From IMG/VR virus record IMGVR_UViG_2711768060_000001, positions 1-12,660 of that record: a stretch of 12,660 bases of DNA; one strand, 5' to 3'. This DNA comes from a virus. Its lineage: Duplodnaviria; Heunggongvirae; Uroviricota; Caudoviricetes. Under the pieces are notes generated by a model. That model was not told the DNA's origin. It did not search any database and saw nothing but the letters and a program-made list of their open reading frames with translations. The position numbers and the translations under genes were made by a program. Shown here one piece after another: positions 1-12,660 of the stretch. Each line of letters begins with the position of its first letter. Position 1 is the stretch's first letter.

Positions 1-297
1 TACCGACACCACCGATACCAGCACCGCACACAGTGCATCCGCCGATGTACCGTCATAACCTGTTTTTGCTGCAATCCAGGCTGACAGCACGCGCGCTCCC
101 AGCACGCCGACAATGAACGACACCAGAAAATGTGCCGCCACCCGCCAGGCTGAAAGCGCCTGCGGCATCGTTGCCACAAACAACGCTCCGGCGAACGCCC
201 CAAACACAATCCCGAAATCCGTCCCGGTAAACAGTCCGAATACCGTCGCCCCGCCGAGCGCAGCGGCTGTACCAGAACCGGATAAGGGTTCAGACAT
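1..297 (-). CDS. Partial ORF (3' end beyond window edge) for a Gly/Ala-rich multi-pass membrane protein; possible holin at the start of a lysis cassette
   Basis: ATG at 297-295 preceded by AGGAGA (revcomp of 300-310). Translation MSEPLSGSGTAAALGGATVFGLFTGTDFGIVFGAFAGALFVATMPQALSAWRVAAHFLVSFIVGVLGARVLSAW... shows about three hydrophobic segments. Position is downstream of Q-like gene, morons and terminators. Holin call is inferred from position and topology only. Confidence 0.5.
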   Translation of the reverse strand, partial: MSEPLSGSGTAAALGGATVFGLFTGTDFGIVFGAFAGALFVATMPQALSAWRVAAHFLVSFIVGVLGARVLSAWIAAKTGYDGTSADALCAVLVSVVSV

Positions 298-459
298 ACT
301 TTTTCTCCTGTAAAGAAAAAAGGGCCACCAGCAGCCCGCAAAAAAAACGCCCACCAAAGGCACCCGCAGATGCCTTTGGTGTGGAGTTATTTGATGTGCG
401 CCGGTCGTGGCGCGAGGAAGTGAAATAAGACTTACCTGAAATTAAGGTTAATCTTAGGG

Positions 460-488
460 TTTAAACCATTTTTAATGCTTAGTAATAT
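460..488 (+). promoter_or_regulatory. Candidate sigma70 promoter (TTTAAA-N17-TAATAT) for a short plus-strand transcript
   Basis: -35 TTTAAA at 460-465, 17-nt spacer, -10 TAATAT at 483-488; no ORF with RBS follows; intrinsic terminator about 55 nt downstream. Confidence 0.25.
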
Positions 489-494
489 GAACTC

Positions 495-572
495 GTCCCC
501 AGAAGGGGCCAATACTTATTCTTCTTCACGGACTTTGTCCCGCGGCGTTAATCCGACAGCCGCGCTTTTTTT
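495..572 (+). ncRNA. Candidate small RNA of about 80 nt between the promoter above and the terminator at 541-572
   Basis: No coding potential; internal hairpin CCCC-AGAA-GGGG (about 500-511); ends in stem CGCGGC/GCCGCG plus T7. Purely structural inference. Confidence 0.2.
541..572 (+). terminator. Rho-independent terminator (plus strand)
   Basis: Stem CGCGGC (541-546) / GCCGCG (559-564), 12-nt loop, followed by T7 at 566-572. Confidence 0.55.
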
Positions 573-608
573 GCGCCATATTCATCGCTGACTTATATGG
601 CATTGCCA

Positions 609-643
609 CACGGACATTATCAGTGTCCGTGTTTTCTTTTTTT
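609..643 (+). terminator. Rho-independent terminator (plus strand), second of a tandem pair
   Basis: Stem CACGGACA (609-616) / TGTCCGTG (624-631), 7-nt loop, followed by TTTTCTTTTTTT (632-643). Confidence 0.55.
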
Positions 644-652
644 GAATTCAGA

Positions 653-681
653 ATAAAAAAAACCGCCCAGTGGAGGCGGTT
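653..681 (-). terminator. Rho-independent terminator (minus strand), downstream of the tRNA genes
   Basis: Stem AACCGCC (661-667) / GGCGGTT (675-681) with the plus-strand A-run 653-662 giving a U-run after the hairpin on the minus strand. Confidence 0.55.
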
Positions 682-843
682 GGTCAATGCATGAGATCAA
701 TCATTTTTATTGTAATAGAAATCGAGGTGTCGGGTGCCTCCCGAAATATCCATCCCTACAACAGATATTGTGATTCCCCGTTAAACCACTATATAAACCA
801 CCCTCGCACTGAGGAACACCTCTGCGGTGCTGTTTACAACACC

Positions 844-905
844 AGAATGATGCATCACCGACCCTGCCAGGAAATACAAAATCTCCACCGATAATGCATC
901 ATTCT
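844..905. repeat. Perfect 13-bp inverted repeat CAGAATGATGCAT / ATGCATCATTCTG separated by 36 bp
   Basis: Arms at 844-856 and 893-905 are exact reverse complements; spacer contains CACCGA ... CCACCGA. Lies in a non-coding stretch between the tRNA genes and the terminators. Confidence 0.6.
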
Positions 906-1045
906 GCTGCCGTAAAAATTCAGCACTGAGGCTACACCCGACCTCAAATCATAGCCAGAGAACAGAATACCATTTAAACACAATCCGCTCCCACGTAATA
1001 AAAAATACGCCAGTGCTGTAATACAATAAGGCTTATTACAAATGT

Positions 1046-1120
<75 letters not shown>

Positions 1121-1123
1121 ATA

Positions 1124-1199
<76 letters not shown>

Positions 1200-1260
1200 A
1201 TTGGTTCTTCGGGGGAGCGATATCACCGATGAACAGGAGTTCCCCTCAGAACCGTTGCGC

Positions 1261-1288
1261 ATAATAACGGGCAAAAAAATTACTTCAA
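1261..1288 (-). promoter_or_regulatory. Candidate promoter for the tRNA-Thr/tRNA-Gly transcript
   Basis: On minus strand: -35 TTGAAG (1288-1283), 16-nt spacer, -10 TATTAT (1266-1261), then GC-rich GCGC discriminator; about 55 nt upstream of the mature tRNA-Thr 5' end. Confidence 0.35.
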
Positions 1289-1376
1289 CCAAAATAATCC
1301 GAAAAATAATCCCGGATTTGTAAATATATGCATATTTTTTATTTTTTCTAAAATAAAGAAATTACCAAATACACAT

Positions 1377-2423
1377 TTAACGATTATTTTTTATTTCAGT
1401 TACAGTCTGATTAAATCTCTCTTCTTCCAGTTCCACGCCAATCGCACGGCGTCCCAGTGAAAGTGCCGCTTTTATTGTTGAGCCTGAGCCCATGAAAAAA
1501 TCAGCAACCAAATCACCCGGACGGCTGCTGGCAGTAATTATCTGGCGCAACATATCGGCTGGTTTTTCACAGGGATGTTTGCCAGGGTAATACTGCACAG
1601 GCTTGTGCGTCCAGACATCCGTATACGGAACGGCAGCCGATACGGAAAAATAACGCCGCAGGGATTTGTACTCTTCCAGCAGGCTGGCATATTGCTGGTT
1701 CAGTTCACTGTATGTGCTGACCAGCTGGTGGTGTGGCTTTTCCGGTTCCCCGCGCTGATGTTTTTCTGCCGCAACACGCGCAAACAACACCTGCAATTTG
1801 TTGTAATCACCCTCGTTCGGTAATTGCCACTGACTGGTACCAAACCAGTGCGAAGCCATGTTTTTCTTTCCGGTGGCTTCCGCTATCTGTTTTGACGTTA
1901 TCCCCAGTGATTCACGCGCATCGCGAAAGTAAGAAATCAGCGGGGCCATGACGTGCTGTTTTAGCTCGCGCCCCTTTGCCGCATAGCCGTCATTTTTGGG
2001 CTGGTATGGCCCCTGATAATGTTCTGCAAACAGAATGCGTTCTGTTGCCGGGAAATACGCCCGCAGGCTTTCCTTGCTGCATCCGTTCCAGCGTCCGGAC
2101 GGCTTCGCCCAGATAATGTGGTTCAGCACATTAAAGCGTTCACGCATCATGATTTCGGTGTCAGATGCCAGGCGATGACCACAGAACAGGTAAAGACTTC
2201 CGGCAGGCTTCAGTACCCGCCAGAACTGCGCCAGACATCGGTCCAGCCATTTCAGATAATCATCGTCGCCCTTCCACTGGTTATCCCAGCCCTCGGGCTT
2301 CACTTTAAAGTATGGCGGGTCTGTGACTATCAGATCGACAGAGTTTTCCGGTATGGTCTGGATAAATTCCAGGCAATCAGCGTTGATTAACTCACAACTG
2401 GATATTTTTACAGTATTAGCCAT
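1377..2423 (-). CDS. Orphan DNA methyltransferase (N6-adenine or N4-cytosine, DPPY-type, beta-class motif order)
   Basis: 348-aa ORF with ATG start; motif IV TDPPY near the N-terminus (LIVTDPPYF) and motif I FxGxG near the C-terminus (DFFMGSGST). No restriction endonuclease partner nearby. Confidence 0.85.
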   Translation of the reverse strand: MANTVKISSCELINADCLEFIQTIPENSVDLIVTDPPYFKVKPEGWDNQWKGDDDYLKWLDRCLAQFWRVLKPAGSLYLFCGHRLASDTEIMMRERFNVLNHIIWAKPSGRWNGCSKESLRAYFPATERILFAEHYQGPYQPKNDGYAAKGRELKQHVMAPLISYFRDARESLGITSKQIAEATGKKNMASHWFGTSQWQLPNEGDYNKLQVLFARVAAEKHQRGEPEKPHHQLVSTYSELNQQYASLLEEYKSLRRYFSVSAAVPYTDVWTHKPVQYYPGKHPCEKPADMLRQIITASSRPGDLVADFFMGSGSTIKAALSLGRRAIGVELEEERFNQTVTEIKNNR

Positions 2424-2559
2424 AGATCAATAAGCACTTCTCTGATAGGCTCATACCGCTTTTGCGCAAAGCAGATGGGCCTGAGGTTTGCTTGTGACCC
2501 CAACGCACGAGCAGATGGCTGGCAGGTGCCGCTAACACCCACCAGCCGCCCATTACCAC

Positions 2560-2587
2560 AAATAAAAAAGCCTTCGCTAAGGAAGGC
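2560..2587 (-). terminator. Candidate rho-independent terminator (minus strand) between the small ORF and the methyltransferase gene
   Basis: Stem GCCTTC/GAAGGC (2570-2587) overlapping the TAG stop of ORF 2577-2894; plus-strand A-run 2562-2569 gives the U-run on the minus strand. Confidence 0.45.
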
Positions 2588-2894
2588 GTCTGTAACAACC
2601 GAACTGATAATCTGCCAGACCCGCCATAACAAGCTGAGTCAGTATTAACTGGCAGCGTTCGCGTGAAAGGTAAGTATTCTGCGCAATTTCCCCGACGGTC
2701 GCCGGTTCGGTGACGCTTAATTCATTAAACACCACTCTGGCAGTTTCGGTCATATCCTGCTGTTTTAGCATGTCTTTTTCCCTTTTCTGGTTAACGTGAC
2801 ATACCATTAACTCTTGTCGGAACAGCCAGCAAGCTGAAAGACCAGTATTCGCAACCACCAGCGCGTTTAATGTTCTGTACCGTTTTTCTGACAT
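2577..2894 (-). CDS. Small hypothetical protein, possibly winged-helix/HTH-like; start uncertain
   Basis: 105-aa ORF; the ATG at 2894 directly abuts the terminator U-tract with no SD. Internal ATG at 2771 has AAGGGA 8 nt upstream and would give a 64-aa product (MLKQQDMTETARVVFNELSVTEPATVGEIAQNTYLSRERCQLILTQLVMAGLADYQFGCYRRLP). Confidence 0.45.
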   Translation of the reverse strand: MSEKRYRTLNALVVANTGLSACWLFRQELMVCHVNQKREKDMLKQQDMTETARVVFNELSVTEPATVGEIAQNTYLSRERCQLILTQLVMAGLADYQFGCYRRLP

Positions 2895-2925
2895 AAAAAA
2901 AAACCTGCCAGGCGACAGGTTTTTT
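2895..2925 (-). terminator. Strong rho-independent terminator immediately downstream of the Q-like gene (tR'-like)
   Basis: Hairpin ACCTG-CCAGGCGA-CAGGT (2903-2920) flanked by A9 (2895-2903) and T5 (2921-2925); on the minus strand the hairpin is followed by U9. Confidence 0.6.
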
Positions 2926-2975
2926 GCTTACTTTGCCATCGCGTAAAAAATCGGCAAAATATCAGATTTGCACGA

Positions 2976-3004
2976 AATATATGCCTTTTAATCTACTTTT
3001 GCAA
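2976..3004 (-). promoter_or_regulatory. Candidate late promoter (pR'-like) overlapping the 3' end of the Q-like gene
   Basis: On minus strand: -35 TTGCAA (3004-2999), 17-nt spacer, -10 TATATT (2981-2976); predicted transcript of about 70 nt ends at the terminator 2895-2925. Confidence 0.35.
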
Positions 3005-3677
3005 TACCTTGCCTGGACAATATCGTCTTTTGTTTCGAACGTGTTCTCGCCGCAAACAATAAAGCTTCGCTATCCAGCTGATGAAAAATGTGTTTCATTG
3101 CAACCCAGTGACCAGTAAATGTTTTGGACCAGTTTTTGGTTGTTATTCCCGCCAGTAATGCCAGATCCTGGTATTCATAACCTTCTCCACCAAAAAGTTC
3201 TGCTTTTACTGCCTGCGCCGCCAGCCAGATTAATTTTTTCAGGCGTTCCCGTGTTTTCTCTGCAATTTTCCTGTTGCCAGAATGAGCCTTAAACTCTTCC
3301 CATGCCCAGCGGGTTATGGTGACCTGATACTCCCAGCAAATATTTCCGCTGTAACACCACAACAACCAGGTTTTATGAGGTTCTTCAAGAGACAGAACAG
3401 CCCGTCGCCATGAGGATGTCGAAAACTCAACCTGACTTACCAGAGGAATTGACGTCCCCTTCGCCAGCGATTGTTTCCCCGGGATTGGTGGATTATCCCG
3501 CGTGATAATTTTTCCAGTCACTTCATCGCGGTACCGGATTTTTTTACGCCTGTAACGCCCTGTATCGAACATGGCATTCTTCTGCCAGGCTTCAAGCTGA
3601 CCTTTTGTTGCCCCACTCAAATCGGCGGTGGCGATAATGAGCTGCTCACGAACAAACTGTAAATACTGGTTATTCAT
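2988..3677 (-). CDS. Putative late-gene antiterminator (Q-like)
   Basis: ORF track start at 3683 is GTG; the ATG at 3677 overlaps the rusA stop (ATGA). Product about 229 aa. Q assignment rests on synteny (after rusA and a YdfU-like gene, directly before a promoter plus terminator) and on recalled size of Qin-type Q proteins, not on a verified motif. Confidence 0.55.
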   Translation of the reverse strand: MNNQYLQFVREQLIIATADLSGATKGQLEAWQKNAMFDTGRYRRKKIRYRDEVTGKIITRDNPPIPGKQSLAKGTSIPLVSQVEFSTSSWRRAVLSLEEPHKTWLLWCYSGNICWEYQVTITRWAWEEFKAHSGNRKIAEKTRERLKKLIWLAAQAVKAELFGGEGYEYQDLALLAGITTKNWSKTFTGHWVAMKHIFHQLDSEALLFAARTRSKQKTILSRQGIAKVD

Positions 3678-4039
3678 GCGCACTCCAGCTCTGTGATTTT
3701 TATCCCCAACCGACCACCAGGAACGACCTGACCGCGCACAATATTAATTTCATCAAACTGCTCGTCGTCTATGAGCAGCCCCGCATGCGTCAGCGCATCC
3801 AGTGGTGCTTTCAGGATATTGTCCAGATCACGACGGCGTTTATCCGGTGGCTCTGCAATAATCTTTATCGCCAGCCTTCCGGACAGATTTAATTTCAGCC
3901 GCTGCTGGCGAACAATTAGCGCCACATCACGGCGATAACGCTCACCGACTTTTGATACAAAATATGTGCTGCCACGACGCCGCCAGTAAGTATTCACCGT
4001 CGGCGGATAAGGCAAAACAAATTCTATGCGTTCGGTCAT
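3674..4039 (-). CDS. rusA: RusA-family Holliday junction resolvase
   Basis: 121 aa with RusA hallmarks: LPYPPTVNTYWRRRG near the N-terminus, PDKRRRDLDNILKAPLDALTHAG, C-terminal GGRLGIKITE; about the same length as E. coli RusA. Confidence 0.9.
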   Translation of the reverse strand: MTERIEFVLPYPPTVNTYWRRRGSTYFVSKVGERYRRDVALIVRQQRLKLNLSGRLAIKIIAEPPDKRRRDLDNILKAPLDALTHAGLLIDDEQFDEINIVRGQVVPGGRLGIKITELECA

Positions 4040-5095
4040 TTATGCTTTCCACTTCAGGACACCCGAATTTCTCGCGTGCATTAAAAAACGAATCAGCAAC
4101 AACAGCTGGCTGCCGTGTTTTTCTTCAAAATCTTTTACTCCGGCGTGCAGTTCGTTATGACATTTACGGCACAGCGGAATAACAAACAAATCATCAGCCT
4201 TTGTTCCCATCCCTCCCAGTCCATGACCAATGATGTGATGCGGATCATCTGCCTGATTGCCACACGTCAGGCATTTCTGTGTTTTTACCCAGCGCGTGTA
4301 TACAGGCATCTCTTCCCGTTGTGGTTTCTGGCGCTGGAGATACTGAGCCGGTGACTCCGGATCAACGGCAATGCTGACCACCGTCTTTTCCTGTGGCGGG
4401 TTTTGCTGGTGGGCGTGAGGCAGCGGCGCAAGATTTTTTGTGCGCTGTTTCAGTATGCTGGTGGCGGTCTGTTCTCCCGGTACGATGTCGCTTTCGCGGT
4501 ACACCGAGCGAATTTTTTCCGCACGCAACCCCAGAGAACGACGTAATACTACCTCCGGTAGTGCGTCCGCCACCTGATTGCAGACCGCCCACCAGGATAA
4601 TTCAGCCAGCGATAATTCCCGCTCCTGTGTGCCATTCACTGCATGGCGTATGACGTCAATCATCCATGCTGACAGGTTTTGGTGAGCAAGTTGCCCGAGT
4701 GATTCTGAGGTCTGGTCACGCAACTGGTTGTCGCAGTGCCAGCACAATACCATCGCGCCGGTGCCGTAACGATATATGACGGTTTCACTGTGATGATAAT
4801 CGCCGTGTGGCCACTGGCAGGATTTAATATGGCGCAACAGCCAGTCAGACAATGCACCAGCACCACCGGCAGCACGAATTACCCGCTCATCGCTGAAAAA
4901 TGGCAGTAATGATTTATCTTCCGCCAGCGGCTGGCGAACGGCAGGAACGACTCCGGACGGCAGACCGCGCATACTTTTCGGTTCCGGTTCCACCAGTACT
5001 CTGCCGTTATGGAATACCTGCATGGATTCACGGCCAGGCTTAACGATAACCAGTCCGAGTTCCGGTACCAGAACAGGTCGAAGCAATACCCGCAT
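4040..5095 (-). CDS. ydfU: YdfU-like prophage protein (DUF968-like) with a C-terminal Cys/His HNH-like motif
   Basis: 351 aa; ATG at 5095 with GGAGG 5 nt upstream; C-terminus CLTCGN...DPHHIIGHGLGGMGTKADDLFVIPLCRKCHNELH. Family name recalled from Qin-prophage YdfU (similar length), not searched. Confidence 0.7.
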   Translation of the reverse strand: MRVLLRPVLVPELGLVIVKPGRESMQVFHNGRVLVEPEPKSMRGLPSGVVPAVRQPLAEDKSLLPFFSDERVIRAAGGAGALSDWLLRHIKSCQWPHGDYHHSETVIYRYGTGAMVLCWHCDNQLRDQTSESLGQLAHQNLSAWMIDVIRHAVNGTQERELSLAELSWWAVCNQVADALPEVVLRRSLGLRAEKIRSVYRESDIVPGEQTATSILKQRTKNLAPLPHAHQQNPPQEKTVVSIAVDPESPAQYLQRQKPQREEMPVYTRWVKTQKCLTCGNQADDPHHIIGHGLGGMGTKADDLFVIPLCRKCHNELHAGVKDFEEKHGSQLLLLIRFLMHARNSGVLKWKA

Positions 5096-5096
5096 G

Positions 5097-5375
5097 TTAC
5101 CTCCAGATGCGTTGCTGGAATGTGCGGGATGGACGTGGTGGGCGTTCGGAATAAGGAAGCCTGACGGAAATTATCCAGTGTCGGAAGTCAAGACTGAGGT
5201 CTTTCCTGACCTCGCGTCCGCGCCTGCGATAACACTGAATCAGCCATTCGGCCTGTTCTTCAGTGCACGGATCATGCTGGTACCAGTCAGTTTTAAAGAC
5301 GTGTGAACGCCGCCCGTACCGGATGGCAGGGTCGGCTGAGTTATCAGAATTGTGAAATTTGGTCTTGTGCGCCAT
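5097..5375 (-). CDS. Hypothetical nin-region protein; start uncertain (ATG 5375 or TTG 5429)
   Basis: ORF track start at 5429 is TTG; first ATG at 5375 gives 92 aa (MAHKTKFHNSD...). The TAA stop at 5097-5099 lies 1 nt from the start of the next gene. Confidence 0.5.
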   Translation of the reverse strand: MAHKTKFHNSDNSADPAIRYGRRSHVFKTDWYQHDPCTEEQAEWLIQCYRRRGREVRKDLSLDFRHWIISVRLPYSERPPRPSRTFQQRIWR

Positions 5376-5444
5376 CTGTTTTCTCTGCTGGCGCAGCAGG
5401 TGCCAGTTGTTCAGGCTGGCGTGCGGCAATATTGTCTCTGATTT

Positions 5445-5475
5445 CTGTTGTCGTCAACAGGCAGCGTGCTATCAT
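5445..5475 (+). promoter_or_regulatory. Candidate promoter with overlapping palindrome for the parDE-like operon
   Basis: Palindrome CTGTTG-TCGT-CAACAG (5445-5460) overlapping -35 TTGTCG (5448-5453); 16-nt spacer; -10 TATCAT (5470-5475); about 35 nt upstream of the antitoxin ATG. Confidence 0.35.
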
Positions 5476-5510
5476 CGAATAGTGTTCTATCCTACTCCGT
5501 GAGGTTTACC

Positions 5511-5768
5511 ATGCGTACAACCCAACAATTCAGCATTACATTAACTAACGAGATGGCTGACATGGTGCGCGCCCGTGTGGCTTCCGGTGCCTATGCTTCA
5601 GAAAGCGAGGTCATTCGTGAAGGGCTTCGCGCACTGAATGAGCGCGATAAAGCAATCGAAGCGTGGTTAACGCATTCAGCCGCCCCCTCTCTTGATTCTA
5701 TCCGCGAAAATCCAAACAACGGACGCTCCATTTCACAGGTTCGCGCCGCGATTCGATCCGGGAAGTAA
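5511..5768 (+). CDS. parD: ParD-family (ribbon-helix-helix) antitoxin
   Basis: ATG at 5511 with GAGG 8 nt upstream (ORF track start 5448 is a non-ATG extension). 85 aa, motif YASESEVIREGLRALNERD typical of ParD antitoxins; directly upstream of a ParE-like toxin. Confidence 0.8.
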   Translation: MRTTQQFSITLTNEMADMVRARVASGAYASESEVIREGLRALNERDKAIEAWLTHSAAPSLDSIRENPNNGRSISQVRAAIRSGK

Positions 5769-5773
5769 TCTGC

Positions 5774-6073
5774 ATGACATATGAAGTCATCATTACTCCT
5801 GAGGCCGAACAACAAATAATCAACCTGCACAGATATATAACGGAGAAAGCAGGAAGCGTCATTGCTGACAATTATGCCAATGCGCTTCTTGATTATCTTG
5901 ATGGGTTTTCTACATTCCCGCATCGGGGCAATAAACGCGATGATATTCGCCAGGGGATGCGGGTAACTCATTTCCGCCACAGAACGATTATTGCTTTTGC
6001 CGTTGATGGCAGAAAAGTCTTTATTGTCGGTATCTATCATGGTGGGCAAAGTTATGAAACCGATTTCTTATAA
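5774..6073 (+). CDS. parE: ParE-family toxin
   Basis: 99 aa, 5 nt after the antitoxin stop; ParE/RelE-fold pattern (MTYEVIITPEAEQQIINLHRYI ... RKVFIVGIYHGGQ). Confidence 0.85.
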   Translation: MTYEVIITPEAEQQIINLHRYITEKAGSVIADNYANALLDYLDGFSTFPHRGNKRDDIRQGMRVTHFRHRTIIAFAVDGRKVFIVGIYHGGQSYETDFL

Positions 6074-6156
6074 ACTTTTACCCACATCATTCCGGTGTTA
6101 GAATAAACCGTCCGCCCCCTCTCTTACTGGCGGATTCGTAGGCTATATAAATCAAA

Positions 6157-6190
6157 GATCCCGGCTCATGTTTGTGCCGGGATCTTTTTT
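6157..6190 (+). terminator. Rho-independent terminator after parE, placed between convergent genes
   Basis: Stem GATCCCGGC (6157-6165) / GCCGGGATC (6176-6184), 10-nt loop, T6 at 6185-6190. Confidence 0.6.
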
Positions 6191-6197
6191 CGGCGAT

Positions 6198-6281
6198 TTA
6201 TCCCCAGCGGCAAATCGAATACACCACCAGCGCCACAGCCATTGCGATTCCTGCCGTTGTAAATGCCTCAGGCCAGGTCAT
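6198..6281 (-). CDS. 27-aa hydrophobic single-helix peptide, translationally coupled to the upstream 301-aa gene
   Basis: Not in the ORF track (under 60 aa). ATG at 6281-6279 overlaps the TGA stop of ORF 6278-7183 (ATGA); GGAGGA lies 10 nt upstream. Translation MTWPEAFTTAGIAMAVALVVYSICRWG, TAA stop at 6200-6198. Confidence 0.35.
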   Translation of the reverse strand: MTWPEAFTTAGIAMAVALVVYSICRWG

Positions 6282-7183
6282 CGTAAAACATCCTCCACAC
6301 CAACCAGTCCGTTCTGCTTCAGATATTCCATCGCCTTATCAGGTAGATTGCTTGATTTATTGACGCTTTTTAACGAACTGGCTAATCGCTTAACCAACAT
6401 TGTTAATTCGTTAACCTGTTTTCCGGATGCTTGTGGATTGTCAGTTTTACCAGAAGTGGCGGTACAGTCGGCGTTCCCACTCTTCACCTCCTGCGGCGGC
6501 TCCGGTAGCGGCATCCAGTACAAGGCGTTCCCTAACCACGATAAAGTGCCGTCGCTCAACTCCACGTATTCCCCTTGTACCTGTCCTGCCATATACTCGC
6601 CGTGCTTTGAATAAATTAAAACCCAATCATCTTGCGCGGGAATCCGCTCACTACAGCTTATCCAACCATCCTTAGTTGCCGGGGAGCTGGTTGACGAATT
6701 CTTATTTTCCCGAAAGTTTCCGGCCTGAAACATAGCGGCGCGGTGACACCAGATAATCCAGCCAATCGCCATATCCCATGCCATGTATTCGCTACCGCCA
6801 TTTTTTGCCCTGCGGCGATCTACAGAATCCCCGAAATGCTTCTCCATAAATAACTCATAGGCAGCCCGTTCATCCGGCACTACCAGCATTGGCGGCGTGG
6901 CGTATAGCTTACGGGTCTGAACACCTGCCCCCTGGCATTTCTCTTCCTCAACAAATCTTTCGAAAGCATATTCCCCGCAATCTTCCCATTCTCCCCATTC
7001 ATCATATTCTGCATCCCACTGGCGATACTGATATGCCACCGGTTCTGCTACCAGCGATGCCAGCGCGATACGAAACACATTAGCAAGCAGGCTATTTGAA
7101 GATTGGTTATCGTGCGCCGCGTCGCTCAGGAAGCCAGTGATGAACGATTTAATCTCCACGTTTTTTCTGGTAATAGTGGTCAT
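6278..7183 (-). CDS. Hypothetical prophage protein (301 aa); C-terminal half may be DUF551-like
   Basis: ATG at 7183 with GAGGA 8 nt upstream; start overlaps the stop of the upstream 69-aa ORF (ATGA). Trp/acidic-rich middle (YQYRQWDAEYDEWGEWEDCGEY); the domain guess is from memory and low confidence. Confidence 0.75.
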   Translation of the reverse strand: MTTITRKNVEIKSFITGFLSDAAHDNQSSNSLLANVFRIALASLVAEPVAYQYRQWDAEYDEWGEWEDCGEYAFERFVEEEKCQGAGVQTRKLYATPPMLVVPDERAAYELFMEKHFGDSVDRRRAKNGGSEYMAWDMAIGWIIWCHRAAMFQAGNFRENKNSSTSSPATKDGWISCSERIPAQDDWVLIYSKHGEYMAGQVQGEYVELSDGTLSWLGNALYWMPLPEPPQEVKSGNADCTATSGKTDNPQASGKQVNELTMLVKRLASSLKSVNKSSNLPDKAMEYLKQNGLVGVEDVLR

Positions 7184-7389
7184 TTGTTAATCCTCAAAAC
7201 TTTATGCCCGGGTGCAAAAGCACGCGTTTTGTCTTTGCTTATTCGCCAACCATCCTTGCGCGCCTCTTTTGCACAGCCAGCCCATGACGTACCGATATAC
7301 TCACCAAAGTCTGGCGACTGATATTTGCCATCCGTACACTGGCGGCAATCACAATAGAGATGCATGGTATAACTTGCGGCAATACCCAT
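7180..7389 (-). CDS. Small Cys-rich (putative zinc-binding) hypothetical protein
   Basis: 69 aa, MGIAASYTMHLYCDCRQCTDGKY...GTSWAGCAKE; ATG directly follows the upstream TGA stop (TGAATG) with AAAGGAGG SD. Confidence 0.65.
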   Translation of the reverse strand: MGIAASYTMHLYCDCRQCTDGKYQSPDFGEYIGTSWAGCAKEARKDGWRISKDKTRAFAPGHKVLRINK

Positions 7390-7749
7390 TCAGCCTCCTT
7401 TGATGCCAGTGTTTACAACCAGGCAGGCCTCTTTGAGTATCCAGTCAACAGCGTCTTTCCATGCTCCGGTTTCGACTGGCGGATTTTCACGCTTAACCTG
7501 TTCATAGAAGCGCACTGCTTTAACCAGTCCTTCTGATGTCACCGGGGCTGGCGTGGCAGTGAATAAGGCCTGAATCTCATAGCTCGGCCTGTCGTTGCAA
7601 TCCTCTTTTGTCGGTACATATTTCCAGTCACCAACCCACATCTTCTCCTGAAAGTCCGTAACGCCTTTTTTCACATAGCGATATCTCCATGCAACTGGTT
7701 TTGCCTGCCCTACCGTTTCATGCCCTTCCTGATAATTAATCTCGCTCAT
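7390..7749 (-). CDS. Hypothetical prophage protein (119 aa)
   Basis: ATG at 7749-7747 overlaps the stop of the upstream 58-aa ORF (ATGA); no recognised motifs. Confidence 0.7.
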   Translation of the reverse strand: MSEINYQEGHETVGQAKPVAWRYRYVKKGVTDFQEKMWVGDWKYVPTKEDCNDRPSYEIQALFTATPAPVTSEGLVKAVRFYEQVKRENPPVETGAWKDAVDWILKEACLVVNTGIKGG

Positions 7750-7922
7750 TCATCGCCCCACTCATCACAATATGCTTCGACAGGTGTTTTTCCTGCTTCG
7801 TAGTCATCACGCCAGGCTTCAGCATCAGCAGCACTTCCACCACGTAACTCTGCATAATCCATTAACAGTTCATGCCATTCTTCAAAACTGACGTTGTATT
7901 TAGTTGAACCAAAATCAGCCAT
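7746..7922 (-). CDS. Small acidic hypothetical protein (58 aa)
   Basis: Not in the ORF track. ATG at 7922 preceded by GAGGAGGAAG; translation MADFGSTKYNVSFEEWHELLMDYAELRGGSAADAEAWRDDYEAGKTPVEAYCDEWGDE; its stop overlaps the next start (ATGA). Confidence 0.5.
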   Translation of the reverse strand: MADFGSTKYNVSFEEWHELLMDYAELRGGSAADAEAWRDDYEAGKTPVEAYCDEWGDE

Positions 7923-8097
7923 TTTGTTCTTCCTCCTCGTCTTTTATTTCGTGATATGAGTAATTGCAGTAGTTAAAGAAAATTTCTTTTGCTTCGTCAT
8001 GAATTTCATCAGGTGTTGCGTCATCGTCCACTTCGAATACATCCTCAAAATCTCCACCAGCTATTCCCGTTTCAATAATTATTTTGAACTTTCGCAT
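7915..8097 (-). CDS. Small highly acidic hypothetical protein (60 aa)
   Basis: ATG at 8097; product is rich in D/E (…DFEDVFEVDDDATPDEIHDEAKE…KDEEEEQNG); 3' end overlaps the next ORF start by 8 nt. Confidence 0.55.
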   Translation of the reverse strand: MRKFKIIIETGIAGGDFEDVFEVDDDATPDEIHDEAKEIFFNYCNYSYHEIKDEEEEQNG

Positions 8098-8168
8098 TTC
8101 ACTACCGCCTTTTCGGGTGGCCTCCTGATGTTCTGAGGGTGCAGAAATCCCTCCTGTTAAGGATTAAT

Positions 8169-8185
8169 ATTTAGCAGTGCTAAAT
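8169..8185. repeat. AT-rich perfect palindrome ATTTAGCA-G-TGCTAAAT in the intergenic gap
   Basis: 8-bp arms around a central G at 8177; lies between the stop of ORF 8190-8936 and the start of ORF 7915-8097. Confidence 0.5.
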
Positions 8186-8189
8186 TTAA

Positions 8190-8936
8190 TTAACTGCGGG
8201 AAAAATCAGTAATCTGTCGAACAATATCCCGGTGCCTGTTCAACTCCCGCAGCGCGGCGCAGATACGCTCCCACTTCTGGACATGATTTTTCGCCCGACG
8301 CAGTTCGCGATTTGCCATATGCAGCGATGGCAAAACCAGGTCATCCGCTTGTGTTTCGGTGAACGATGGCAACGACTGCACAATGTCCGCCACAGTTTCT
8401 GTTTTAATATCTTCCTGTGTTGCAGCCTCCTGTACTGGTAACGCAACACCTGCGGGCTGAGGAAAGGCCTTACCATCAGTTTCCGCTACCGATGCTGCTT
8501 TCGGCTCTGCTGGTAAATTATCGCCCGGTATGCAGTAACGAAATTTACCGCCCTGATTTACGCGAATCAGACGACCTTTGCTGATTGCCATTGCCAGCGT
8601 TGAAGCCACTTTGCGGGATGTTGTACCGAACAGCGTAGCCAGTTCATCCGCCGTTTGTGGGCCACGTTGTTCAATCGTCGAAGTTAAATCGCTCTCCGAA
8701 ATTTTCGTCACTGTTGCCGTAGTGGTTTCTTCCGGCAGTACTGCCTGTGCTGGCTGTCCCTGCTGAACGTTGTTATCAGCCACACGCCAGGTGTATACGC
8801 TTCTATCAACGAAGCCAGCCTTTTTCAGTTCCCACAGCTCGTTCAGCACTTCTTCACGACTGATATCAAGTCGCGCTGCCAGTTCTACCGACGTGGCTTT
8901 TCCCATTGCTTTCAGTGCGTCAAAAACGGTCTCCAT
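8190..8936 (-). CDS. Prophage protein with N-terminal winged-helix-like region (DUF1627-like); start reassigned to internal ATG
   Basis: ORF track start 9002 has a poorly spaced SD and would overlap the P-like gene; the ATG at 8936 has GGGAGG 8 nt upstream and gives 248 aa ([45 protein letters not shown]...). Family name from memory. Confidence 0.7.
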
Positions 8937-8970
8937 TAAAATTTCCTCCCGGTAAAAATTACTTCTCAAC

Positions 8971-9636
8971 TCAAACAAACCCAGCCGCTTTCCGGCGTTC
9001 ATATTCCTGTTTCAGCAACTCAATTGGAGTTGGCCCCGACGGGCGTTCTGGTGCAGCCAGTTGCCGCCGTACGGGCGGAACACTGAAGCCGTCACCAACA
9101 TGCTTTGCCCATTTCGCCAGTTGCCGTTCTGCAAGTCGTTTTAACTCCCCTTCGGTCATCTGGCGCTCAATCCCCTTTGAACGCATCTCGAGGCAAATGT
9201 GATACAGCACAGGCTGAGACCACGGGTATTTATCGCTTCCGTCGTATCGCCAGGACTCGTTGCGCCAGCGGCGGTACTCCTCCATCACGGCATCCACAGT
9301 CAAACCAAACGGATTTGCCCCACTTTCCGAAATCAACGCCACAAACTCTGCCAGGTCAGGAGGCCATGTTTCACCCGCCCGACAACGCTCCATGCACTGG
9401 CGGCAGACCTGCCGGATTTGCTGCTCAGTCATCGCGCCAATCTGTGCAATCCAGAGCTTCGAAGGTGCGGCCCCGTTCTTCTGAGTCCAGCGGTTCGAAT
9501 AAACCTCCCCCATGAGTTCCCACAGCTTCCACGCCGTTTCCGTCGCTGATAAATCCGTTTTCACGTTCCCACTGCTCACGTGCTGCCCGAATTTCCTGAA
9601 CTGCCCGTGATGCGGTGCCACCTGGCGTTGCTGCAT
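8971..9636 (-). CDS. Lambda-P-like replication protein (helicase loader)
   Basis: 221 aa; ATG at 9636 with AAGGGGGTGA SD. Segments such as [27 protein letters not shown] and [20 protein letters not shown] parallel recalled lambda P segments (FVAWCREE, YPWKSNAHYWLVTNL, TDAELRRKAADELVHMTARI). Overlaps the O-like ORF by 212 nt in another frame. Confidence 0.75.
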
Positions 9637-10465
9637 GGCTCACCCCCTTGCTGACTGGTTTAACCTGCGCCCTGACGTGATTTACGTGACGGGCGAATTT
9701 CTGCTCCCACTGAACCTGCGTGAAAACTTTCCCCTCCGCTGCCCAGTAGTCCCGGAAGGCGGCAAGTTCAGCAGGTGTAAATTCCGGCTCCGGCAGAGCC
9801 ACTCCCCACAGTGCAGCCCGTTGTCGGAAATCGGGCGACGGATTCCAGCCGTCGGTCATCGGAAATTTTCCGATGGGTTCGCTCAGACCTTCCAGGTAAT
9901 CAGGTTCCGCTGCCTGCAACGGCGCGCCATTCGACTCACTGGTCGGAGCGATCTCGCGCACGCGCGCGCTATGTGTGGGGTTTAATTCTTTATCTGTATC
10001 TGTATCTGTCGTGACTCGTCGTGACATGTCGTGACATATGCGTGACTCGTCGTGACATTCCTCATTCTGTTTTCGTAATTTTTCCCTCTCACGCTGCGCT
10101 CTCTTGCGCTCTGCCGGGGATTTCGCGGTTTGAGAAACGTTACCGTTGTCCTCTTTCAGTACCTGGCGTTTTTCCCATCCAGTGATTAAATCTCCATCAA
10201 GCACCCGCCCCTGCATTGCTTGCAAAATTGAATCAATTACGTCTTCCGTCACATCAAGCGCACTTGCTAAATCTTCCGTCGTGACATCAATGTGACCCCG
10301 TAGTGACACGCCGTGACATGTCGTGACATTTCGTGACGCGCTAACCAGAAGGTGGATATACACCGCCATCACTGTTGCAATCGGCTGTCCTGACACCCTT
10401 GAAATTGTTCGCCACTTAGGGTCATTTGGCATGTCATGCCATAATCTGAGCCAGGCGTTGGCCAT
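9425..10465 (-). CDS. Replication initiator (lambda-O-like role) with iteron arrays embedded in its coding sequence
   Basis: ORF track start 10471 is GTG; ATG at 10465 has AGAGGTGA SD. Positioned directly upstream of the P-like gene. Contains two arrays of GTGAC-core direct repeats and a (TD)3 linker encoded by (TATCTG)3. Confidence 0.7.
   Translation of the reverse strand: MANAWLRLWHDMPNDPKWRTISRVSGQPIATVMAVYIHLLVSASRNVTTCHGVSLRGHIDVTTEDLASALDVTEDVIDSILQAMQGRVLDGDLITGWEKRQVLKEDNGNVSQTAKSPAERKRAQREREKLRKQNEECHDESRICHDMSRRVTTDTDTDKELNPTHSARVREIAPTSESNGAPLQAAEPDYLEGLSEPIGKFPMTDGWNPSPDFRQRAALWGVALPEPEFTPAELAAFRDYWAAEGKVFTQVQWEQKFARHVNHVRAQVKPVSKGVSHAATPGGTASRAVQEIRAAREQWERENGFISDGNGVEAVGTHGGGLFEPLDSEERGRTFEALDCTDWRDD
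9991..10056. repeat. (TATCTG)x3 tandem repeat followed by iteron array A: five (T)CGTGAC repeats at 10-11 bp spacing
   Basis: TATCTG x3 at 9991-10008; GTGAC cores at 10011, 10021, 10031, 10042 and 10052. An alternating CG tract (9951-9970) lies adjacent. Confidence 0.65.
10278..10337. repeat. Iteron array B: six GTGAC-core direct repeats at 10-11 bp spacing
   Basis: GTGAC at 10281, 10292, 10303, 10313, 10323 and 10333, same orientation as array A and about 225 bp from it; inside the N-terminal coding region of the O-like gene. Confidence 0.6.
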
Positions 10466-10536
10466 ACTCACCTCTTCTGATACCGAATCTTTTTACTCAC
10501 GAGTTTCCGGAAGCGATCCGGTATGAATATTGTCAG

Positions 10537-10962
10537 TCAATGTACCGCCACAGCATTTCCTGCCGGGCCACCACGATTCATCTGATCGAACAAAGTGATC
10601 GCTGATGCAACAAACTCGTCGATATCTTTCACCAGGCGCTCCCGTCGCTCGACAAGCTCCCGGTGATATTCCGAACTGTGGCTGCGCATCCAGGCCACCA
10701 GCGGAGGTGGCATTGCCTTTTCGATCGCTGGTAACAGCGCCTGAATTTTTTCAACAGCATCAGGAGTGTCTTTATCTAGCCAACGGAAAATCTTTTGGGT
10801 GTTGAGATAAAGTGCGTTGTGCTTGCTGTCGTTATGCAGAACCGGAAACGTCATACCCAGCTCAAAATAAGCCCTGGTTATTTCAGCTGCCGGAACTTTT
10901 TCACCGTCCGGATGCGCCCAGGCATTCATCGCCATGCGGATGTGTTCATGCTTGATTTTCAT
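10537..10962 (-). CDS. ydaT: YdaT-like protein (Rac prophage family; CII-like, toxic on derepression)
   Basis: 141 aa; begins MKIKHEHI and ends ...VH like recalled Rac YdaT; its start overlaps the stop of the upstream YdaS-like gene. Confidence 0.75.
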   Translation of the reverse strand: MKIKHEHIRMAMNAWAHPDGEKVPAAEITRAYFELGMTFPVLHNDSKHNALYLNTQKIFRWLDKDTPDAVEKIQALLPAIEKAMPPPLVAWMRSHSSEYHRELVERRERLVKDIDEFVASAITLFDQMNRGGPAGNAVAVH

Positions 10963-11218
10963 GAATCAACTCCGGCGCATTTGATGTGTTAGTCTTACAT
11001 CCAACAGGTAAACCGTCGGTTGGGTTAGGATAAATATCAGGGCGAATTTCATGCGGGGTAACTTCCCACTTCATTAACTGGCATAACGGAATTACCTGCT
11101 TTGGGGGAACGCCAAAGCTAAACCATTGCCAAACGGTCTGTTGAGCGACCCCCATATAGCGACCTATTTCAGCTTGAGTGTATTTCTGCCTAATTTTTTC
11201 GCGAGTGCTATCTAGCAT
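10946..11218 (-). CDS. ydaS: YdaS-like Cro-type HTH protein
   Basis: ATG at 11218 with GAGGAGGG SD (ORF track start 11272 is an upstream extension); motif GVAQQTVWQWFSFGVPPKQV...IRPD; divergent from the repressor gene. Confidence 0.7.
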   Translation of the reverse strand: MLDSTREKIRQKYTQAEIGRYMGVAQQTVWQWFSFGVPPKQVIPLCQLMKWEVTPHEIRPDIYPNPTDGLPVGCKTNTSNAPELIHENQA

Positions 11219-11253
11219 TTTGCCCTCCTCTGAAAACGATAAACAAAGCCTAC

Positions 11254-11288
11254 AATAAAAAACTGTATGCAATCAACAGTTTTTTATT
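11254..11288. promoter_or_regulatory. Operator-like perfect palindrome AATAAAAAACTGT-N9-ACAGTTTTTTATT in the divergent promoter region
   Basis: 13-bp arms at 11254-11266 and 11276-11288 are exact reverse complements; lies between the YdaS-like and repressor genes; the same CTGT/ACAG core recurs at 12288-12324. Confidence 0.5.
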
Positions 11289-11326
11289 GTGATGCTTTTA
11301 ACAGTATTTACCTGTAAAATTGAATA

Positions 11327-11728
11327 ATGATGAACGCCCTAGAAGTATCTATGTACAGAATCAGCAAGCTTCTTCAGGAAACTGGATGGAGCCAGGCTGA
11401 ACTTGCCCGTAGAATTGGTGTGACACAACAAACTGTTCAACAATGGGTCAGCGGTAAGGCCACACCTAAAGCCTCAAGTTTGGATAAACTGGTTGAGGTT
11501 ACAGGGCATCCATTGCATTGGTTTTTATTGCCTCCAGAAGAGGGGGAGCAAATTTTCACCCCTGACACGATGAAAATTGGTCCTCGCCAACGCGAACTGC
11601 TCCAAGCTTTTAGTGCGTTTCCAGAGGAAGACCAAGAAAAAATGCTTCAAGAAATCAAAGACAAGAAAAAATCAATGGAAGAAACCATTGCCCGGTGGTT
11701 GGCGGCACAAAAAAGCCGCCGGGCGTGA
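11327..11728 (+). CDS. Prophage repressor, XRE/CI-type HTH, lacking a LexA-like S24 protease domain (RacR-like role)
   Basis: 133 aa; N-terminal HTH (SQAELARRIGVTQQTVQQWVSGKATP); too short for a C-terminal autocleavage domain; divergent from YdaS-like; no SD, with -10-like TAAAAT (11315-11320) ending 6 nt before the ATG. Confidence 0.8.
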   Translation: MMNALEVSMYRISKLLQETGWSQAELARRIGVTQQTVQQWVSGKATPKASSLDKLVEVTGHPLHWFLLPPEEGEQIFTPDTMKIGPRQRELLQAFSAFPEEDQEKMLQEIKDKKKSMEETIARWLAAQKSRRA

Positions 11729-11755
11729 CCACTGTACAAGAAGAGGAGTTATGCC

Positions 11756-11947
11756 ATGAATACAGCCCTTTCTCCGATAGTTTCAGAATTCGAAACTACC
11801 GAACAAGAAAACAGTTACAACGAATGGTTGCGCGCTAAAGTGGCGTTAAGCCTTGCAGACCCTCGCCCCGCAATTCCACATGACGAGGTAATGGCTGAAA
11901 TGGAAAATCTTATTGCTCAAATTGCTGCAACTAACAGGAGCGAGTAA
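11756..11947 (+). CDS. Putative antitoxin of a RelE/ParE-type toxin-antitoxin pair
   Basis: 63 aa; GAGGAG SD; stop overlaps the start of the downstream toxin (TAATG). Assignment mainly by genetic context. Confidence 0.65.
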   Translation: MNTALSPIVSEFETTEQENSYNEWLRAKVALSLADPRPAIPHDEVMAEMENLIAQIAATNRSE

Positions 11948-12234
11948 TGTTACCCATTTTATGGCTACCATCTGCTCGCGATGATTTGCGTCAGATCGTA
12001 ACCTATATTGCTAAGGAAAACATTCCTGCAGCACGCAGACTAAAAATACGTATTGAAACGTCTGTTTTAGCCCTCTCTGAGCATCCATATCTATATCCGC
12101 TAAGTGATCGAGTATCCGGTTTGCGGGAAATTGTGGTTCACCCTAATTATATCGTGTTGTACCGAGTAGCAACTTCAAGCATTGAAATTGCGAATATTGT
12201 GCATGCCCGTCGACAATTTCCCTTCTCTATCTGA
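11947..12234 (+). CDS. RelE/ParE-superfamily toxin
   Basis: 95 aa; MLPILWLPSARDDLRQIVTYIAKENIPAARRL...EIVVHPNYIVLYRV...IEIANIVHARR fits the RelE/ParE pattern; translationally coupled to the antitoxin. Confidence 0.8.
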   Translation: MLPILWLPSARDDLRQIVTYIAKENIPAARRLKIRIETSVLALSEHPYLYPLSDRVSGLREIVVHPNYIVLYRVATSSIEIANIVHARRQFPFSI

Positions 12235-12250
12235 GCCGAACAATTTCCAT

Positions 12251-12277
12251 ACTCCCTCACTCGAGGGAGTTTTTTTG
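12251..12277 (+). terminator. Rho-independent terminator after the toxin gene
   Basis: Stem ACTCCCTC (12251-12258) / GAGGGAGT (12263-12270), 4-nt loop, T-run 12270-12276. Confidence 0.65.
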
Positions 12278-12287
12278 CCTAAAACAA

Positions 12288-12330
12288 CAATTAAAAACTG
12301 TTGACACAAAACAGTTTTTAATTGTAGATT
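12288..12330 (+). promoter_or_regulatory. Rightward early promoter overlapped by a 15-bp-arm operator palindrome (pL-like)
   Basis: Palindrome CAATTAAAAACTGTT-gacacaa-AACAGTTTTTAATTG (12288-12324); -35 TTGACA at 12301-12306 inside it; -10 TAGATT at 12325-12330 (18-nt spacer). Confidence 0.5.
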
Positions 12331-12509
12331 GTTTTTACCAACCCACCCCGCCCCACAGAACGCAGGGCAATACTTCGAGTTACCAGGCAGTGGTCAGGGG
12401 TTAAGTAGCCAGCCCGAGGCGTAAGAACATGACGGCAGGGTTCAACTTTAATAACTATGCAGCAGGTTTTTGTTCCGCTACCCCGGCGTTAAGGGGAAAT
12501 GAGGTCAAC

Positions 12510-12660
12510 ATGGATACTATCGATCTTGGCAACAACGAATCTCTGGTGTACGGCGTGTTTCCCAACCAGGACGGCACATTCACCGCGATGACGTATACCA
12601 AAAGCAAAACGTTTAAAACCGAAAATGGTGCCCGTCGCTGGCTGGAAAGAAACTCAGGTG
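12510..12660 (+). CDS. Partial ORF (continues beyond window), first gene of the rightward early operon; hypothetical
   Basis: ATG at 12510 with GAGG 6 nt upstream; open to the window edge (MDTIDLGNNESLVYGVFPNQDGTFTAMTYTKSKTFKTENGARRWLERNSG...). Confidence 0.55.
   Translation, partial: MDTIDLGNNESLVYGVFPNQDGTFTAMTYTKSKTFKTENGARRWLERNSG

Follow-up and report, generated by a model that had tools for sequence, protein, structure and literature searches.

Whether an 84-nucleotide open reading frame (ORF) that lies between an early gene and a terminator of a lambdoid prophage is a gene, and what its product might do, is the question raised by positions 6198-6281 of the IMG/VR virus record IMGVR_UViG_2711768060_000001 (Caudoviricetes). 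The whole stretch of DNA analysed, hereafter the window, comprises positions 1 to 12,660 of this record. A reading of the window from its letters alone (the original prediction) had proposed here an unannotated, 27-residue hydrophobic peptide translationally coupled to the 301-codon gene that precedes it. From the comparisons described below, we judge with a probability of roughly 60% that the ORF is a real gene for a single-pass inner-membrane microprotein, which would be expressed early by coupling to the upstream cistron and would act by helix packing.

Anatomy of the ORF

The ORF list and the comparison with related loci place a 27-codon gene on the minus strand at 6198..6281, with a TAA stop codon at 6200-6198 and the predicted product MTWPEAFTTAGIAMAVALVVYSICRWG. 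The ATG (6281-6279) overlaps the TGA (6280-6278) of the 301-codon gene, which encodes a DUF551 protein, in an ATGA arrangement (6278..6281, minus strand) that is presumed to be the coupling site. A Shine-Dalgarno element, GGAGGA, is positioned at 6291..6296 on the same strand, 9 nt 5' of the ATG and within the last DUF551 codons. Coordinates, overlap and GGAGGA element are thus as the original prediction had given them. The minus-strand letters around the start read ...GGTGTGGAGGATGTTTTACGATGACCTGGCCT..., and no second in-frame start codon is present between the preceding stop codon and the ATG.

In total, 205 ORFs of at least 20 residues are found in the window, 107 of them encoding 20-40 residues. 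A 17-residue stretch resembling a transmembrane (TM) segment occurs in three of these 107, and only the microprotein ORF among the three combines an ATG, a Shine-Dalgarno element and a stop/start overlap. Taken alone, the ORF would be weak evidence for a gene, and the case beyond chance rests on comparison with other sequences. Two ORFs on the opposite strand, 6172..6363 (+; 63 residues) and 6168..6614 (+; 148 residues), overlap the microprotein gene and reach into the DUF551 gene at its 3' end; both were judged to be shadow ORFs.

Conservation of the Reading Frame and Selection on Its Product

IMG/VR was scanned with a degenerate DNA pattern that covered codons 1-7 only and left the remainder of the ORF free, and 119 loci were listed. 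Among these matches, a 27-codon ORF ending in ...YSICRWG was present in 106 of the 119 loci; the exceptions included one in-frame deletion of 2 codons, two stop-loss extensions, one frameshift and one copy cut by the end of its contig. An upstream ORF of at least 50 residues ended at the TGA of the overlap in 99 of the 106. Conservation of frame and overlap in related elements, which the original prediction had named as its own test, was therefore strongly positive.

The ratio of nonsynonymous to synonymous polymorphism (pN/pS) was calculated over codons 8-27 from 53 to 89 distinct nucleotide versions. Values of 0.36-0.40 were obtained in the microprotein frame and of ~0.9-1.7 in three other frames, and site diversity was 0.16, 0.09 and 0.29 at codon positions 1, 2 and 3, respectively, consistent with purifying selection on the amino acids. 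Frame retention and selection are two of four independent lines, the others being the modular behavior and the family reach considered below, which together indicate that the ORF is a genuine, conserved, protein-coding prophage gene.

Length variation was observed within the TM segment of some copies (P0066-P0073 and P0059), in which in-frame expansions of a 6-nt repeat lengthen the peptide from 27 to 29, 31 or 35 residues. Here IAMAVAL becomes IAMAMAMAVAL, IAMAMAMAMAMAVAL or IAMAVAVAVAL, with the frame always kept, and the pattern looks like slipped-strand length polymorphism.

A Discrete Module with Unrelated Flanks

The ORF and its Shine-Dalgarno element behave as a discrete module of ~100 nt. 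Three unrelated classes of upstream gene end were found, namely DUF551 proteins that terminate in ...PPQEVNQ, proteins that terminate in ...NGLISVEDVLR (the window type) and Ea22-like coiled coils that terminate in ...IEQEVNR. In all three the common sequence starts ~20 nt 5' of the ATG, and the ATGA is kept throughout. A GGAGG-type element occupied the same place in most of 30 upstream junction variants, with GAGG, AAGG or GGAG in a few. On the downstream side, 16 unrelated sequences were observed among the matches listed, each beginning at the first base past the microprotein stop codon. Of 101 such loci among these matches, hok/sok followed in 45 and the parDE terminator in 14, the other contexts including further hairpin terminators and xis-proximal genes; in several, the stop codon falls 7-17 nt ahead of a terminator stem.

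The same pattern was seen in ArgO145, TH18, Min27, Stx2-II, 933W, BP-4795, PhiR12_1 and POCJ13, where the module sits in the leftward exo-xis region of some and in the rightward operon of others. Divergent enterobacterial versions, MNWPEAFTAVGVAIAVAFILYSLFRWG and MSWPDAIVTLGMVFAAAFVVYSICRWG, retain the length and the pattern at ~54% identity.

Several individual junctions and copies may be mentioned. In 933W-type phages (L251, 2501-2950), the hokW/mokW/sokW locus lies within ~100 nt past the microprotein stop codon, and toxin-antitoxin (TA) or moron cassettes seem to be inserted preferentially at the position directly 3' of the ORF. The copy in Shigella phage POCJ13 (L254, 2001-2084) has a stop at codon 3 (MT, stop, PEAFAIVVAAISIALIVFAICRWG) and is an apparent pseudogene. 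In two metagenomic variants of 74 residues (P0113 and P0117), stop loss fuses the microprotein to a small hydrophobic ORF downstream, MSDDISLAMEGALVVIVVVGVYCLVVLLMERLGN, which may be another unannotated membrane peptide.

A Widespread Family of WPEAF Microproteins

Relatives were sought with a 45-residue in-frame translation of the window and with DNA patterns. The microprotein belongs to a large phage family, here termed WPEAF microproteins, that is absent from the four profile libraries searched (Pfam, NCBIfam, PHROG and PADLOC). The family pattern is M-(T/S/N)-W-P-E-A-F, followed by V10-G11, an Ala/Gly-rich helix with small residues at 13, 15 and 17, an aromatic residue at ~21 and a basic residue at ~25.

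Scans of the whole collection that differed at codon 2 returned at least ~120 contigs each for ACN, for AGY (Ser) and for AAY (Asn) and 5 contigs for the TCN codons of Ser, ~2 of which are plausible family members. Because TCN destroys the upstream TGA, the occurrence of only 5 matches indicates that the second codon is constrained to begin with A; the same count places the chance level of the pattern at a handful. At least 48 further distinct peptides of 21-35 residues were recovered, from contigs of 39-69% GC, in which M-(T/S/N)-WPEAF is followed by a hydrophobic run and usually by a basic end. Most of them lie behind an ORF of at least 50 residues that stops at an ATGA, with a Shine-Dalgarno element. 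All four Pro codons, both Glu codons, all four Ala codons and both Phe codons are used in distant members, which indicates that the motif is selected as protein and not as nucleic acid.

A profile constructed from 20 members was searched against 1.84 billion proteins (E ≤ 1e-3), which yielded 154 clusters at 50% identity, almost all of 24-60 residues. Position 2, which is unbiased in these matches, was Asn, Thr or Ser in 92 of 114 and Gly in 14. Among 102 representatives sharing <60% identity, conservation extended beyond the motif to V10 (70), G11 (76), A13 (48) and A17 (73), with a small residue at 15 in 95 of the 102, Trp, Tyr or Phe at 21 in 51 of the 102 and Lys or Arg at 25 in 50 of 93.

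Distant members are found within tightly packed early arrays of small genes, some of which include genes for DNA ligase, DHH phosphoesterase, intein-containing ThyX or ATP-grasp proteins. Apart from DUF551/Ea22 in enterobacterial phages, a census of neighboring genes revealed no conserved partner. A tblastn search of cultured phages with distant and consensus peptides returned nothing, probably owing to low-complexity masking. The pattern scan of bacterial genome contigs was swamped by chance and out-of-frame matches and served as a null only: outside the family, a short hydrophobic ORF followed the pattern in ~2 of the ~117 matches listed, nearly all of the remainder being out-of-frame or random.

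Two variants of the pattern stand apart. A subfamily (P0146, P0151, P0158, P0165, P0167, P0173 and P0182; also L503, 468-581) has an N-terminal extension of 6-12 residues and no Met before xWPEAF; this hydrophobic-acidic extension, e.g. MINLLLAETISWPEAF..., again begins where the ORF and the gene before it overlap by 4 nt. Many Atopobium/Lancefieldella genomes share a conserved out-of-frame match to the 21-nt pattern (MTWPEAFLAALPIV, followed by a stop); it presumably reflects a different reading frame of some conserved gene that has no relation to the phage family.

Predicted Helix, Topology, and Proposed Action

The best 17-residue Kyte-Doolittle window of the microprotein scored 1.96, and an AlphaFold2 model computed with the family alignment for a close homologue of 30 residues (P0038) consisted of a single helix spanning residues 3-27, with a predicted local distance difference test score of 89. 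These results support the single TM helix that the original prediction had assigned to the peptide. The helix is about as long as the bilayer is thick and has a Trp near each end (W3 and W26), and Pro4-Glu5 forms a typical helix N-cap. The N-terminal flank is acidic and lacks basic residues, which are found at the C-terminus; given the positive-inside rule for membrane proteins, an N-out, C-in orientation is predicted. When the helix is projected on a wheel, G11, A15 and S22 share one face and A6, A13 and A17 another, so the helix would be slim on two sides, a pattern of tight helix-helix packing. As there is essentially no soluble part, the peptide could act only within the membrane.

The ORF does not exceed 50 codons and is under purifying selection, its relatives form 154 clusters, and a bilayer-spanning hydrophobic helix is predicted, features that fit the class of small single-pass membrane microproteins. 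The conserved ATGA, which recurs in 99 of 106 loci among the matches listed and is reflected in the count of at least 120 contigs for AGY versus 5 for TCN, is the arrangement expected of a translationally coupled cistron. The established features, namely the ORF anatomy, its conservation, the selection on its amino acids, its modular spread, the breadth of the family and the predicted helix, can be accommodated by the following minimal model. Ribosomes ending at the DUF551 stop codon would restart at the overlapping AUG, aided by GGAGGA 9 nt upstream, and the microprotein would be made during early lytic transcription without a predicted promoter of its own. The peptide would insert in the inner membrane with its W3-P4-E5 end periplasmic, its R25-W26 end cytoplasmic and nearly all of its length buried, and would most likely work like other small membrane proteins of bacteria, by packing its small-residue faces against the TM helices of a host or phage membrane partner early in lytic development. 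That relatives reside in the early small-gene arrays of quite different phages argues for a role in the early lytic cycle rather than in prophage maintenance or exclusion.

Extending this model, WPEAF microproteins may tentatively be viewed as a factor, widespread among phages of Gram-negative bacteria, that acts early in host takeover or against host defence. Its invariant, periplasm-side W-P-E-A-F cap and its Gly/Ala face would dock onto one conserved inner-membrane machine and alter what that machine does; this could be, for example, an insertase or translocon, a protease, a DNA-entry transporter or a membrane-bound defence effector. We regard this as a speculative possibility. If it is true, part of the phenotype of ea22 deletions in Shiga toxin (Stx) phages would be due to loss of the coupled microprotein.

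Several observations weigh against the proposal of a coupled, early-expressed membrane microprotein. The antisense frame that shares its wobble positions gives the same pN/pS, because those positions are common to both frames, and is open in 85 of 89 variants. The antisense ORF at 6172..6363 (+) was nevertheless rejected as the true coding frame, since it would start in the variable terminators and end in unrelated upstream genes and since only ~2 positions are able to create a stop there. The integrity of the ORF among E. coli-type copies is partly shared ancestry, as these copies are closely related, and the motif columns of the family census were partly imposed by the search patterns. With 9-10 nt, the Shine-Dalgarno-to-AUG spacing lies near the upper limit of what is usual, and the local RNA fold, which partly pairs the Shine-Dalgarno region, is no better than that of shuffled sequences (z = -0.9). 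The upstream genes of distant members show no relationship to one another. The peptide was found neither in the supplements of a ribosome-profiling paper on enterohemorrhagic E. coli (Sakai) nor in those of a survey of small ORFs in Enterobacteriaceae, and no ribosome-profiling or proteomic record of it was found; as lysogens keep their early operons repressed, absence from those supplements carries no information. Finally, translation, the coupling mechanism, membrane insertion and topology, timing and mode of action all enter the proposal as inferred components.

Alternative Roles for the Microprotein

A small membrane toxin or a lysis-timing peptide, which would depolarize or permeabilize the inner membrane, would also be short and very hydrophobic, and DinQ, ShoB and TisB are toxins of the same size class. 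Adjacency to hok/sok (45 of 101 loci) and parDE (14 of 101) in enterobacterial phages, among the matches listed, points the same way. Against this, TA adjacency is absent from distant members, and the gene is carried intact, at up to 8 places per genome. A scan of the minus strand from 6281 to 7600 predicted no σ70-like promoter, leaving the gene without a predicted promoter of its own. The surrounding sequence differs from the first base past the stop codon and changes directly outside the ORF and its Shine-Dalgarno element, which implies that there is no conserved antisense unit, although an antisense RNA confined to the ORF could exist. No toxin model in Pfam, NCBIfam, PHROG or PADLOC matched at E ≤ 1.

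The evidence is no more favorable to a holin. Holins are expected in the lysis cassette, beside the endolysin and spanin genes and under late, Q-dependent transcription, whereas the ORF lies outside it, in the early operon between the replication genes and parDE/DUF968/RusA and ~2.5 kb upstream of Q. Its C-terminal tail consists only of R-W-G, where a holin would have a charged, hydrophilic domain, and neither a Hok nor a holin match was obtained in Pfam, NCBIfam or PHROGs. The conserved residues, moreover, are small and of the helix-packing type (G11, A13, A15 and A17) and not polar or charged as would suit the lining of a pore. A toxin or lysis-timing function is therefore considered unlikely.

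Phages are known to encode small inner-membrane exclusion proteins, and a prophage-borne peptide that adjoins moron-like cassettes behind terminators could be a superinfection-exclusion or defence factor that blocks the entry of phage DNA at the inner membrane. Such a role is hard to reconcile with a gene inside a repressor-controlled early operon that has no predicted promoter of its own, or with relatives in phages that carry ligase, ThyX or ATP-grasp genes and do not look temperate; no match to PADLOC was found either, and we consider the role improbable. With no promoter predicted, a position outside the lysis cassette and TA neighbors only in some enterobacterial contexts, the toxin, holin-like and superinfection-exclusion roles that the original prediction had suggested are left unsupported.

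The coupling itself admits a different explanation, in which the microprotein is a membrane tether or stoichiometric partner of the upstream DUF551/Ea22-type protein, made 1:1 with it. Enterobacterial copies are always found directly behind mosaic genes of the DUF551, Ea22 or EaA type, in the exo-xis region or the rightward operon, and occasional in-frame fusions (P0114, P0140, P0144 and P0147) append the microprotein as a C-terminal tail anchor. These fusions, however, are singletons on 1-3 contigs, and the proteins encoded upstream end in three kinds of C-terminus without mutual relationship. The genes that precede distant members are unrelated as well; by eye their products include MazG-like and GapR-like proteins, and some are membrane proteins. 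A dedicated partnership of this kind is thus doubtful.

Least probable is that the peptide itself is functionless, either as a recombination linker between mosaic junctions on both sides or because its translation merely brings ribosomes to a terminator (Rho protection or modulation of a hairpin that starts 8-11 nt past the stop, the stop lying 7-17 nt before terminator stems in several contexts), given that amino acids are under purifying selection while synonymous sites vary, that the motif and helix persist at 40-50% identity and 39-69% GC without nucleotide similarity, and that many family members have another gene and not a terminator downstream.

Comparison with Known Membrane Peptides and Phage Genes

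The small inner-membrane regulatory proteins of bacteria, which include KdpF, AcrZ, MgtS, MgrB and CydX, resemble the microprotein in having ~25-50 residues, one TM helix with packing faces and almost no soluble part and in having been missed historically. There is no sequence relationship to them, the KdpF model giving E = 0.034, below the cutoff, and the microprotein differs in being phage-borne, in its overlapping stop/start within an early operon and in its invariant N-terminal WPEAF. Type I toxins (Hok/Gef, TisB, DinQ, ShoB and Ibs) are similarly short, hydrophobic inner-membrane peptides, as the microprotein is predicted to be, and hok/sok is its direct neighbor in 933W-type phages. By contrast with these toxins, the microprotein is presumably coupled to an upstream gene and has neither a conserved antisense RNA locus, nor a predicted promoter of its own, nor a toxin-family match.

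The coat proteins of Pf3 and M13 have a short acidic tail and are inserted in a YidC-dependent manner. Pf3 coat, M13 procoat and the microprotein share a single TM helix that is preceded by a short acidic tail and followed by a C-terminal flank of basic and aromatic residues (...RW...), and the microprotein may likewise adopt an N-out orientation without a signal peptide. Unlike those coats, the microprotein is not a virion protein; it is the product of an early gene of tailed phages, is much shorter and has no sequence similarity to them.

The accessory genes of the lambdoid exo-xis and nin regions (ea22, ea8.5, orf60a, orf61 and orf63; PMC10834534) share its neighborhood and early transcription. 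In Stx phages, transcription of ea22 is reported to exceed that of N and of every other exo-xis gene (PMC10834534), and the microprotein gene lies directly behind the ea22-type gene. The microprotein cistron is, however, not among the genes described there (PMC10834534); it would encode a membrane peptide and not a soluble protein, and phage lambda (positions 20000-48502) has no copy. We class the microprotein as a new family within an already familiar kind of element; it is a homologue of none of the proteins compared.

Occurrence and Annotation

A 181-nt region containing the gene was matched in 1522 of 5426 complete E. coli genomes (~28%), at up to 8 places per genome, with an exact match in strain T309.Ta3, and the gene is present in 933W, VT2-Sakai, Min27 and BP-4795. 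No copy was found in lambda positions 20000-48502 or in the Qin and Rac prophages of K-12. The ORF was not listed in the feature tables of four RefSeq E. coli loci and six phage records, 933W included, and BP-4795, PhiR12_1 and POCJ13 have no annotated feature at its position. The peptide was thus unannotated, as first proposed, in the RefSeq E. coli and phage tables inspected; the proposal does not hold for GenBank as a whole, where a minority of submissions (79 contigs) carry the identical peptide as a "hypothetical protein" or "bacteriophage protein," e.g. AOM45384.1. A relative with an alternative upstream start, of 40 residues, has a RefSeq MULTISPECIES entry. Common gene callers apply a minimum of 90 nt, and the gene is usually missed by them because it is so short (84 nt).

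Searches of Pfam, NCBIfam, PHROG and PADLOC with the peptide gave no family match; PTR2, DUF883_C, KdpF and PetL appeared as sub-threshold noise and were rejected. No relevant paper containing the WPEAF motif was found in the literature searched.

A gene without a name is therefore present in 933W, VT2-Sakai, Min27, BP-4795 and about one-quarter of complete E. coli genomes, within a family of at least 154 clusters that spans very different GC contents and has an N-terminal motif that ranks among the most sharply conserved seen for microproteins. For work on phage microproteins it is a concrete candidate that is easy to test. Alleles in which ea22/DUF551 of Stx phages is deleted or carries an insertion may also remove or uncouple the microprotein gene, which could confound published pro-lysogenic phenotypes. 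More generally, the module boundaries of lambdoid mosaics are able to hide real cistrons.

The Prophage Neighborhood

The window is part of a lambdoid prophage whose early genes are read along the minus strand. From the CI-like repressor (11327..11728, +), the order up to the terminator is Cro/YdaS-like, YdaT-like, O-like with a DnaT domain, P, DUF1627, small genes, DUF551 and the microprotein; beyond it follow parDE on the opposite strand, DUF968, RusA, antiterminator Q (2988..3683) and a DNA methylase. The microprotein ORF is the last cistron in one segment of the early rightward operon.

A bidirectional intrinsic terminator hairpin, AAAGATCCCGGC...GCCGGGATCTTT, is predicted at ~6149-6190 on both strands and begins 8 bases past the microprotein stop codon. 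It folds at -23 kcal/mol (z = -7.0) in the minus transcript and at -24.6 kcal/mol (z = -4.8) in the plus transcript, with no shuffled sequence as stable. U-runs are present in both directions, that of the plus strand being the better, which indicates that the hairpin also serves the convergent genes parD (5511..5768, +) and parE (5774..6073, +). The convergence on a parDE terminator that had first been claimed is borne out by this hairpin, which a simple terminator scan overlooked because its loop is long. parD was identified from its translation and parE as a Pfam ParE_toxin, both also from the RefSeq annotation of homologous loci; they are context only and lie outside the microprotein unit.

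The DUF551 gene (6278..7183, minus strand; Pfam PF04448, E = 1.6e-10), whose PHROG matches are of unknown function, carries an extra C-terminal module that ends in ...NGLVGVEDVLR. At about residue 236 its product reads ...LPEPPQEV, the point at which many other DUF551 genes end (...PPQEVNQ and stop) and the microprotein begins; here the C-terminal module of ~65 residues intervenes. The same module closes proteins of 114 residues of the WP_000206826.1 type, and this layout suggests recombination within the common CAGGAGGTGAA Shine-Dalgarno region. Further early-operon ORFs without a Pfam match lie at 7390..7749 (119 residues), 5097..5429 (110 residues) and 7180..7389 (69 residues), all on the minus strand, the last sharing 4 nt with the beginning of the DUF551 gene.

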